A DNA stretch of 63,280 nt, filler included, from Collodictyon triciliatum (Eukaryota), in the NCBI GenBank assembly GCA_043381765.1. It is 43 parts of 43 records of this genome, joined end to end, with 100 filler letters (N's around TTAATTAATTAA, not from the genome) between each part and the next. Parts side by side here need not be neighbours in the genome. Positions count along the whole stretch, not along the records: positions 5,921 to 7,299 come from JBHJMP010011243.1; 42 more parts are not named here. One strand, 5' to 3'. A model generated the notes under the pieces. It searched no databases, was not told where the DNA came from, and was given only the letters and a program-made list of their open reading frames with translations. The stretch's first letter is position 1. Each line of letters starts with the position of its first letter. Below are positions 5,921-7,399 of the stretch, one piece after another. Made by a program: the position numbers and the translations under genes.

Positions 5921-6045
5921 AGTACCTGACACAGCAAGAAGCCTATAAGATGCAAAAGAGAATCCAGAAAAAAGCGCAAGCAGAAGCAGTAGATAAAGAA
6001 ACAACACGAGCTTATGCATTTGACGCAAACAATTTATTTCGGTAA
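5921..6045 (+). CDS. 3' end of a hypothetical viral ORF upstream of the ATPase (...RAYAFDANNLFR*)
   Basis: Open frame ending in TAA 6043-6045, 6 nt before the next ATG. Confidence 0.6.
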
Positions 6046-6051
6046 TATAGT

Positions 6052-6774
6052 ATGGAAGAAAAAAAAGTAAACAACTTTAAAGTCGAGCCCCTGACTGTAA
6101 TAAAAAAAAGCAAACGCCAGATTATGTTGGAAGCTCTACCAGACCCTGGAGAGTCAAGGCCATACTTGATGTTAATTAGTGCAAAGACGGGCTCGGGTAA
6201 ATCTATCTTGATTGCCAATTTGCTTAGGAAAAAATAATTATATTATAAATATTATGCAAAGTGTTATTTTTGTTCTAGCAATATGGTGGATGGTAAGATA
6301 TCGGACGTGGCTTATAACGGAATCCGATTTGCAAAAGCTCGCAGCTTTGATAATTTTACTGATGAGATATTTGACACAATTCTTCAGGATCTGACAAAGG
6401 ACGACGACTGGAAGGACGAGCAGTATCTTTTAGTTCTCGACGACTTATCCACCGTTTTTGAAAGACCGACAAAAAATATGTTGAAAAACTTTCTCAAACA
6501 TCGACACTATAATCTGAGTATTATAATTGTGAGCCAGGCCATACGACTGATGAATCCTAAGCTGCGTCAGAATGCCACTCACCTGATTTCATTTTATACC
6601 AGCAACCAGCGCGAACGTGAGGCGCTTAATGAGTTGACGAATTTGTCGCAATCAAAATTCGATGAACTCCTGGAATATTGCACGGATGAGAATTATTGTT
6701 TTATGTTTATAGATTTGCTTCAGCCTAGAAAGCCAAAGATATACAAGAACTTCAACTCTGAAATCGTTTATTAG
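6052..6774 (+). pseudogene. A32/FtsK-like genome-packaging ATPase of a Polinton-like virus/virophage, with one in-frame TAA (6235-6237)
   Basis: ORFs 6052-6237 and 6283-6774 are in the same frame; Walker A ISAKTGSGKS, Walker B LLVLDD, arginine finger KHRHYNLSIIIVSQ, LRQNATH, C-terminal YKNFN; intronless. Confidence 0.88.
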
Positions 6775-6799
6775 ATCAAATAAATTTGTCTGAACTAAT

Positions 6800-6973
6800 A
6801 TGTTCAAACTAATTATCAATGATGTTACCTATGAATTCGAATCCTGGGAAGAGTTGCAGCTTTACTTGTATTCGTTGGACAAAAACAATAAAAAGAGGCA
6901 AAAGAAAAAGTCTATGGACGAAATCTATAAAGTTGTAACCTCGGAGCCTTTTATTATAAAGTTTGAGGACTAA
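6800..6973 (+). CDS. 57-aa hypothetical viral protein (MFKLIINDVTYEFESWEELQLYL...)
   Basis: ATG...TAA, 25 nt after the ATPase stop, preceded by TAATA like the ATPase; below the ORF-track cutoff. Confidence 0.65.
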   Translation: MFKLIINDVTYEFESWEELQLYLYSLDKNNKKRQKKKSMDEIYKVVTSEPFIIKFED

Positions 6974-7202
6974 AAATTGGTGTGAATGGTGTGGTCCATT
7001 ATAATTGATTACAGTGGCAATTACTATAGTTTTTACCGTGAAATCACACCATTCACACCATTCACACCATTCACACCATTTTTTGAAGTTAATATATAAA
7101 AATATAAAAATAAAAATAAAAATTTCAGGCCCAACCTACAACGAACCTTTTGCAATGGTGTGATCGTGTGAATGGTGTGAATGGTGTGAAGGTGTGAATT
7201 TA
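6972..7202. repeat. Three arrays of a 9-bp unit (TTCACACCA/TGGTGTGAA) in alternating orientation around an AT-rich spacer; origin-like
   Basis: ~2 units at 6977-6993 (reverse), 4 units at 7044-7080 (forward), ~5 units at 7155-7198 (reverse); AT-only tract at 7089-7125. Confidence 0.85.
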
Positions 7203-7399
7203 AAAATACTTTTGTAATTACCTACTTAAAAACAATTGTATAGATAATAATATTAAAAACCCCTGCAAAAGAATGGACATTCACGAATTCCTAATCATTN
7301 NNNNNNNNNNNNNNNNNNNNNNNNNNNNNNNNNNNNNNNNNNNTTAATTAATTAANNNNNNNNNNNNNNNNNNNNNNNNNNNNNNNNNNNNNNNNNNNN

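Follow-up and report, generated by a model that had tools for sequence, protein, structure and literature searches.

What kind of element is represented by positions 5921-7299 of a stretch of DNA assembled from the protist Collodictyon triciliatum (GCA_043381765.1), and does it reside in the genome of that protist? A preliminary description, made from the sequence alone, regarded these positions as a fragment of an endogenous Polinton-like virus or virophage carrying an A32-type packaging ATPase. The whole stretch that was analysed, here called the window, has 63,280 bases and consists of 43 separate contigs of 1366-1388 bp each, in near-descending order of length and separated by 42 identical N..TTAATTAATTAA..N spacers; positions 5921-7299 are exactly one whole assembly contig of 1379 bp, flanked by such spacers. 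Since the window contigs are independent, unlinked pieces, the neighbours of this contig say nothing on its linkage or position. Our conclusion, held with a probability of about 0.88, is that these 1.4 kb come from the genome of a Polinton-like virus (PLV), one of the small double-stranded DNA viruses of protists that have an icosahedral double-jelly-roll (DJR) capsid.

The packaging ATPase and its cassette

The gene at 6052-6774 is established, from sequence profiles, as encoding an A32/FtsK-HerA-type packaging ATPase. When read through an in-frame stop codon that is considered below, its product matched the Pfam family PF04665 (Pox_A32) at 35.7 bits against a cut-off of 22.8 (E 8.4e-9), with the alignment covering profile positions 12-172 of 242. 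PF04665 was also found in all 12 homologues retrieved from 5.8 billion proteins, and at 38.1 bits in the orthologue from a related metagenomic locus, L018. Intact homologues of 240 amino acids (aa) were 98% and 85% identical to the window ATPase. The motif set on which the preliminary description had relied (Walker A/B, RH..S...SQ and R.N) is present and is conserved across the homologue alignment: Walker A reads AKTGSGKS at aa 44-51, Walker B reads LLVLDD at aa 126-131, the RH..S....SQ block is RHYNLSIIIVSQ at aa 151-162, and R172-x-N174 is also present. Among the 13 aligned sequences D130, D131, R151, H152, S156 and Q162 are invariant, and K45, S48, G49, K50 and R172 are conserved in at least 90%.

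A search of the PDB with the single ATPase sequence identified nothing significant (best E 0.098), and a profile search with the 13 sequences matched STIV2 B204 (E 6.7e-5) and STIV B204 (E 6.3e-4) nearly full length, the STIV2 alignment pairing query residues 41-231 with chain residues 9-203. The other PDB matches at that level were guanylate kinases, aligned over the P-loop only, which leaves STIV2/STIV B204 (PDB 4kfr, 4r2h) as the only solved structure family that matches nearly the full length of the ATPase. B204 likewise is an FtsK/HerA-type motor, and its virus has a DJR capsid and an internal membrane; that virus is, however, an archaeal one, and the E value stays at only 6.7e-5 even with a profile. 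A feature search of the ESM-Atlas with an intact relative (P0003) gave 30 matches; the eight clusters listed among them, with scores of 0.98, were all mostly or wholly viral, seven of them with Pox_A32. The earlier call of an A32 packaging ATPase is thus upheld by a Pox_A32 score above the cut-off, by PF04665 in every homologue and by a best solved match that, in the profile searches, is a viral packaging NTPase and not a cellular ATPase. With the ATPases of poxviruses and of nucleocytoplasmic large DNA viruses the window protein shares a PF04665 score above the gathering threshold, Walker A/B, the RH..S..SQ block and the arginine, but the match is weak and the protein lies far from giant-virus members, with 25-34% identity to its only IMG/VR relatives, which come from 6 distant loci. 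By analogy with vaccinia A32, PRD1 P9 and STIV2 B204, the intact ATPase would dock at one capsid vertex and pump a genome of roughly 17 kb into a preformed procapsid, a putative ATP-driven role in DNA packaging.

The following features of the contig surround or include the ATPase gene (window coordinates; open reading frame, ORF).

5923-6045, plus strand: C-terminal 40 codons and TAA (6043-6045) of a conserved lysine-rich protein of 112-116 aa; 36-85% identity to the C-termini of 6 relatives
6036-6040, plus strand: ATTTC at exactly -16 of the ATPase ATG, promoter-like, inside the last codons of the upstream gene
6052-6774, plus strand: A32-type (FtsK/HerA superfamily) packaging ATPase gene, 240 codons and TAG (6772-6774); matches Pox_A32, phrog_2666 and STIV2 B204
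6235-6237, plus strand: in-frame TAA at codon 62 of the ATPase, just past the Walker A loop; GAA or GAG (Glu) in 10 of 10 close relatives
6784-6788, plus strand: ATTTG variant at -16 of the 57-aa ORF, promoter-like
6800-6973, plus strand: conserved 57-aa ORF; 6 relatives at 38-73% identity, 14 invariant columns
6972-7200, no strand assigned: repeat-rich spacer; its 9-nt units AATGGTGTG form three blocks that alternate in orientation
7225-7260, plus strand: conserved motif upstream of the replication gene, CTTAAAAACAAT ... ATTAAAAAC, an 'early' promoter-like element
7273-7299, plus strand: first 9 codons (MDIHEFLII) of a primase-helicase gene, with position and upstream motif as in the related loci L007, L008 and L018

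The cassette layout previously outlined was reproduced in its coordinates, gene spacing and ORF order by translation and an ORF check, with 6 nt between the stop of the upstream ORF and the ATPase ATG at 6052 and 25 nt between the ATPase TAG and the 57-aa ORF. Two corrections are needed: the ATG placed near 7274 does open a frame that runs to the contig end, but it lies at 7273, and the ATPase is not a single open frame, the TAA at 6235-6237 having been overlooked. The upstream ORF is open at the left end of the contig and has the ending NLFR/IFR-stop that is common to the relatives. The primase-helicase start, open to the right end, has counterparts in L007, L008 and L018 that are DUF5906 primase-helicase genes of 762-786 aa, that of L007 beginning MMDIKTFIE. 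Neither the 40-aa ORF tail nor the 57-aa ORF has a credible family in Pfam or PHROGs, the latter giving a weak match to phrog_19686 (E 0.0013). We propose that the contig spans the junction of a morphogenetic module, made up of the end of the small basic protein gene, the packaging ATPase and the 57-aa gene, and a replication module that consists of the structured spacer followed by the primase-helicase.

The contrast that had been drawn between this cassette and intron-dense 'host contigs' is one between unlinked contigs of a single assembly, and carries no linkage information. The G+C content of the contig (0.35) is inside the spread of the other window contigs (0.26-0.57), so composition decides nothing on its origin.

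Metagenomic relatives and the class of virus

A metagenome collection yielded 19 related loci, 11 of them with 91-97% ATPase identity; on contigs of 13-16 kb the same cassette recurs, with 85% identity in DNA and 97% in protein. The 12.9-kb locus L007, for instance, is collinear with the contig over 5921-6941 at 85% DNA identity, its ATPase protein being 97% identical. Four loci (L007, L008, L018 and L019) have the following gene order in common.

Gene 1: protein of ~520-533 aa, predicted major capsid protein (MCP)
Gene 2: protein of 114-119 aa
Gene 3: protein of 1188-1368 aa with coiled coil and Pro/Gly repeats
Gene 4: protein of 737-807 aa, conserved only at the N-terminus, possibly fibre-like
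Gene 5: protein of 254-267 aa, predicted penton
Gene 6: protein of 112-116 aa
Gene 7: ATPase
Gene 8: small ORF, the counterpart of the 57-aa ORF
Element 9: structured spacer
Gene 10: DUF5906 primase-helicase of 762-786 aa (E 1.8e-16; PHROG DNA primase, 1.4e-10)
Gene 11: protein of 174-187 aa
Gene 12: rve integrase (E 7.5e-12; 45.9 bits against a cut-off of 32.6) with an AT-hook

Two of these genes bear directly on the nature of the element. The 532-aa protein of L018, for which 39 homologues were found and which has an orthologue in L008, is a DJR MCP as judged from its AlphaFold2 model (pLDDT 70.4, pTM 0.74). In a Foldseek comparison with BFVD this model had 122 matches at E <= 1e-3 (best 8.8e-22), among them the MCPs of giant viruses, an ascovirus, an asfarvirus, an adintovirus and an adomavirus, and those of virophages (Sissi, Qinghai Lake and mavirus) and of Tetraselmis viridis virus S1 (TVS1). 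The 254-aa protein, with 125 representatives at E <= 1e-3 in a library of 1.84 billion, is on the same kind of evidence a penton: its model (pLDDT 89.5) matched 61 BFVD entries at E <= 1e-3, with TM-scores of up to 0.81, including TVS1 proteins, the mavirus minor capsid protein, adomavirus LO5, and the pentons of MELD-virus and adenovirus. In the relatives the penton gene is on the opposite strand to the ATPase and two genes upstream of it, and the window contig ends before reaching it. Absence of linked capsid genes had been named as an outcome that would speak against a virus; by way of the relatives, a predicted DJR MCP and penton are in fact found on metagenome contigs that carry the same cassette.

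The combination of MCP, penton, A32 ATPase, primase-helicase and rve integrase in the relatives, with neither pPolB nor protease, is a PLV gene set. A search with ORFs of 70 aa or longer from L007, L008 and L018 gave no polymerase such as pPolB and no protease above threshold in Pfam or PHROGs, profiles that a remote protease could escape; the only protease trace was Peptidase_C15 in the integrase ORF of L018, at 18.1 bits and below the cut-off of 22.7. As no pPolB was found, the lineage is not a Polinton in the strict sense, and as no protease was detected it is not shown to be a virophage. The designation 'PLV/virophage' in the preliminary description is upheld for the assemblage of PLVs, virophages and Polintons, and is not supported for virophage, given that no maturation protease was detected in three relatives. 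According to two earlier studies, MCP, minor capsid protein and ATPase occur in all PLVs and a helicase-primase and recombinase are typical of them (PMC7805220, PMC10120064), and the gene set of the relatives agrees with this published definition. The former study describes rve integrases as rare in PLVs as of 2021.

With PLVs (TVS1, the metagenomic groups of Bellas & Sommaruga 2021 and the endogenous ones of Bellas et al. 2023) the relatives share the DJR MCP, the penton and the A32-type ATPase; likewise they use a primase-helicase in place of pPolB, are about 13-17 kb long, carry an integrase and have no detected protease, and TVS1 is among the matches of both the penton model (rank 3) and the MCP model (ranks 28 and 42). 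They differ from described PLVs in that their MCP and penton have no Pfam family and that the MCP is at most 16% identical to any BFVD protein. Virophages (mavirus, Sputnik) and Polintons/Mavericks have the same capsid module and ATPase, mavirus and Polintons also having rve, and the mavirus MCP (rank 34) and minor capsid protein (rank 24) are among the fold matches; in contrast to them, L007, L008 and L018 have no cysteine protease or pPolB, and a DUF5906 primase-helicase takes the part of the replication enzyme.

We considered whether the contig could instead derive from a PRD1/tectivirus-like DJR phage or from a giant virus. The phage family phrog_2666 ('terminase large subunit') gave the top hidden Markov model score for the ATPase; moreover, A32-type ATPases and DJR capsids occur in giant viruses too, many of the named top fold matches of the MCP are giant-virus proteins, and one distant relative of the ATPase (26%) is on a contig of a giant-virus metagenome-assembled genome (L006). 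Against this, the relatives are units of 13-17 kb that encode a single MCP and a single penton, an rve integrase of eukaryote type with an AT-hook, and a primase-helicase; the PLV TVS1 is at rank 3 of the penton matches (E 7.3e-15), ranks 1, 2, 4 and 5 being unnamed; the first 50 MCP matches include a single phage, at rank 46; and the PHROG search of the relatives identified no phage tail or lysis families. The unit size, the eukaryote-type integrase and the penton matches together make a phage or giant-virus origin very improbable.

Several observations nevertheless weigh against assigning the contig to a PLV. The strongest single family score of the ATPase is that to phrog_2666 (E 1.3e-14), above that to the Pfam A32 family, and the ATPase assignment is based on sequence profiles and not on a predicted structure. 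The evidence for capsid, penton, integrase and helicase comes from relatives in other samples, the contig itself being only 1.4 kb long, and the MCP model is of moderate confidence, with 100 of its 532 residues at pLDDT < 50. Placement among PLVs follows from gene content, profiles and folds, rather than from a tree that includes named reference viruses. Finally, the search of the other window contigs for capsid, penton and integrase genes that the preliminary description had proposed found none in any of the 42 by tblastn and Pfam: all 94 tblastn matches of ORFs from 25 related loci were inside 5921-7299, so that nothing related to these ORFs is present elsewhere in the window, and no viral hallmark Pfam domain was identified in the other 42 contigs. 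The latter scan covered 88 of the 92 stop-to-stop ORFs of at least 85 aa, excluding the ATPase and three overlapping alternative-frame ORFs at 9342-10136; the six ORFs with Pfam matches (Peptidase_M24, two RVT_1, FG-GAP, Pirin and amine oxidase) are cellular or reverse transcriptase in kind.

The PLV lineage to which we assign the contig is not rare. Clustering at 90% identity placed 37 ATPase sequences together, on virus-only contigs of up to 17.2 kb, and contigs that have both an ATPase of this cluster and matching MCPs reach 16.9-17.2 kb; this clustering of lengths suggests a genome of about 17 kb. Terminal inverted repeats were absent from the contig ends of L007, L008 and L018, which may be incomplete. 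In their sources the lineage proteins are labelled 'hypothetical protein' or 'Cdc6-like AAA superfamily ATPase', and no paper naming four of the relatives' contigs was found in the literature, in a search that extended to papers and not to supplements listing PLV contigs. The element had been called undescribed, a term that does not fit a lineage that is abundant in metagenomes, though unannotated; moreover, endogenous or free PLVs of protists have already been described, according to PMC10120064 and PMC7805220.

Other genes of the relatives have features of their own. The protein of 737-807 aa (L007:4485-6896, L008:5492-7912 and L018:5774-7984) adjoins the penton gene and is without a Pfam or PHROG family; its first ~64 residues are 64% identical between L008 and L018, and elsewhere L007 and L008 are 32% identical, a pattern that would suit a capsid-anchored fibre with a fast-evolving receptor end. 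The protein of 1188-1368 aa (L008:1351-5454, L018:2174-5737) has long coiled coils and tandem Gly/Pro-rich repeats of 9-12 nt, and its gene takes up about a quarter of the genome, an unusual share in a virus of 17 kb; among families it matches only a phage minor head protein, and that weakly (phrog_1775, 1.2e-5), and like the MCP, penton and fibre-like proteins it has no Pfam family. In L008 a direct repeat of 157 nt (8741-8897 and 10269-10425, 99% identical) brackets the cassette of 116-aa gene, ATPase and 56-aa gene, and may point to a module that is mobile or prone to recombination, or to a regulatory region that has been duplicated.

The in-frame stop and the origin of the contig

In the standard code, the TAA at codon 62 divides the ATPase into ORFs of 61 and 163 aa, so that the gene is not one intact open frame in this copy, the relatives being intact. 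As the stop directly follows the P-loop, the product would be without Walker B and the gene as written cannot yield a working motor. In four metagenome runs the contigs have G at 6235, namely three of three in run X1, two in X2, three in X5 and one in X3, some of the depth at 6235 in X3 and X5 coming from records that continue as unlike sequence. An intron over the TAA was rejected, as the alignment to relatives is gap-free across codon 62 and there is no GT between 6215 and 6235.

One explanation would leave the ATPase intact, namely that the virus replicates in a host where a stop codon has been reassigned or depends on context, so that this TAA is translated as an amino acid. The codon differs from the GAA/GAG of all ten relatives by a single first-position change in a gene that is otherwise strongly constrained, and in ciliates there are nuclear codes in which TAA stands for Glu or Gln (NCBI tables 6 and 30). 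However, this is the sole in-frame TAA codon of its kind, and TAA terminates both the upstream ORF and the 57-aa ORF at the homologous ends of the relatives; since it closes two conserved ORFs in this way, a sense reading is nearly excluded.

The ratio of nonsynonymous to synonymous substitution rates (dN/dS, Nei-Gojobori) was 0.032-0.045 for the window ATPase against those of L007, L008, L010 and L013 and 0.032 between L007 and L008. Purifying selection has thus acted in full on the ATPase over practically the whole of its divergence, and a dN/dS of ~0.03 implies that the stop is very recent, marks a defective variant, or is a sequencing or assembly error. Bellas et al. 2023 (PMC10120064) attribute many stops in short-read assemblies of protist endogenous viral elements (EVEs) to the collapse of near-identical copies.

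The contig may come from an integrated copy, as the preliminary description proposed, from an episomal one or from a co-sampled virus. Among public sequencing runs none had half of the contig's words; the best share was 0.15, and the runs were mostly freshwater or sediment metagenomes. Contigs 90-99% alike the window contig were nonetheless present in three freshwater metagenome runs and one subsurface run, and one contig of 533 nt from the subsurface run is 97% alike over 6787-7088 and identical over 7184-7270, a match that takes in the lineage-specific repeat spacer, in which L007 and L008 differ. Relatives at the level of strains are therefore present in the environment, an observation that does not distinguish free particles from integrated copies.

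We consider it about an even chance that the contig is exogenous, that is, free or replicating PLV DNA of an infection in the culture or sample, perhaps one with a giant-virus helper, or DNA of a co-sampled organism, assembled at low coverage, in which case the TAA would be a sequencing or assembly error or a defective variant. Consistent with this, the dN/dS of the window ATPase equals that among the free metagenomic relatives, the 37-sequence ATPase cluster is on virus-only contigs, the contigs that are 90-99% alike are from freshwater and subsurface metagenomes, and the lengths of the relatives' contigs cluster as those of discrete genomes do. On the other hand, metagenomes contain protist cells too, so that such contigs might just as well stem from integrated copies that were assembled separately; from an abundant free virus one would expect an assembly longer than 1.4 kb; and a replicating genome should not have this stop codon, unless the codon is an error.

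Tentatively, and at less than even odds, the contig may instead be endogenous: a PLV integrated in the nuclear genome of the protist and repetitive, hence assembled as a short separate contig, with the stop being either that of a decaying copy or a product of collapsed near-identical copies. The rve integrase of the close relatives would allow insertion into a host chromosome; a premature stop in a highly constrained essential gene is what a non-replicating resident copy would gather; and, according to Bellas et al. 2023 (PMC10120064), protist EVEs often assemble as short virus-only contigs. Integration is, however, opposed by the lack of a host-virus junction, both ends of the contig being within viral genes, and by the lack of any other viral fragment in the window; furthermore, a single disabling change at a dN/dS of 0.03 leaves only a very short time for any residence without selection.

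Promoter-like motifs, the repeat spacer and what the fragment means

The sequences upstream of the genes suggest two classes of promoter-like motif, one before structural genes and one before replication genes, with putative promoter roles. A WTTTC pattern, picked after the sequences of L007, L008 and L018 had been viewed, is at exactly -16 of the ATG in 12 of the 29 genes of these loci. In further loci, which are related and hence not independent, it was found at -16 of 21 of 36 structural (late-set) genes versus 0 of 14 others, against a background of 0.006 per position; the structural genes that bear it include those for the MCP, the penton, the ATPase and the 115-aa and 119-aa proteins. 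Loci at a greater distance (L020-L025) do not have it at -16 and have A+T-rich motifs of other kinds. The primase-helicase gene is preceded by a different motif, TTAAAAACAA...ATTAA[GA]AAC; in eight upstream regions, that of the window included, TTAAA was present in all eight and TTAAAAACAA in five, and a 47-nt blastn match of the contig to L018 (83% identity) is at this motif. TAATA, which the preliminary description had noted just before the first two ATGs, is indeed there, at 6043-6047 and 6795-6799. As a promoter it was rejected, because at the ATPase it overlaps the stop codon of the upstream ORF and before the small ORF of L008 it is absent; given its inconsistency across relatives, WTTTC/G at -16 is the more consistent signal.

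Short motifs at a fixed distance are in the style of cytoplasmic giant viruses and their virophages. Because the structural genes have WTTTC at -16 and the replication gene has another conserved motif, the clade might be transcribed by giant-virus-type machinery and not by host Pol II, as a virophage-like hyperparasite without the virophage protease, a scenario that we regard as unlikely. The -16 element is in this respect an indirect hint of a possible dependence on giant viruses.

The spacer between the two modules consists of AATGGTGTG blocks at 6976-6993 (forward), 7045-7080 (reverse) and 7154-7199 (forward), with an A+T-rich stretch of 73 nt (7081-7153) between the last two. All eight exact copies of AATGGTGTG in the 63-kb window are within 6985-7188, a concentration beyond what chance would give, and a ninth copy at 6976 has one mismatch. 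Folded as single-strand DNA, the spacer had an energy of -50.2 kcal/mol (z = -6.4), and none of 100 shuffles was as stable. Relatives have unrelated inverted or direct repeats at the same position, just upstream of the primase-helicase. We speculate that the spacer is a candidate replication origin or a regulatory cruciform; in the former case an origin with lineage-specific repeats would be formed by the iteron-like inverted 9-mers on either side of an A+T-rich stretch, just upstream of the primase-helicase. The 533-nt contig of the subsurface run (X3) is 97-100% identical to the right part of the window contig but is without 7089-7183, which means that either the length of the A+T-rich spacer differs between near-identical strains or the spacer collapses in assembly.

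Elsewhere in the window, three further observations were made. At 14808-16185 RVT_1 matches (E 1.4e-13 and 5.5e-7) over two overlapping minus-strand frames represent a frameshifted retroelement fragment. A long (ATT)n / (ACT) microsatellite at 8207-8500 is within an apparent intron, with exon-like flanking ORFs of which the second resumes at 8545. The contigs at 8885-10272, 11851-13229 and 35462-36833 have an overall G+C of 0.51-0.57, with ORFs of 0.6-0.72 G+C that are open in several frames, and most of the other contigs are at ~0.3, so that the composition of the assembly is very heterogeneous; this could reflect either G+C-rich exons within A+T-rich DNA or more than one organism.

Integrated PLVs and virophages are common in protist genomes and can defend against giant viruses, as PMC10120064, PMC10945749 and PMC12220804 indicate. 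Against that background the fragment is one more PLV instance, and alone, as 1.4 kb with a stop in its key gene, it changes nothing in the field. Its relatives reveal an unannotated lineage of ~17 kb that recurs in freshwater metagenomes, with an rve integrase, a primase-helicase and two classes of promoter-like motif. The practical value of the fragment is as a hook for asking whether the protist hosts this lineage: if the contig is truly resident in the assembled protist, a cellular host would be named for an abundant, unannotated PLV lineage of fresh waters.

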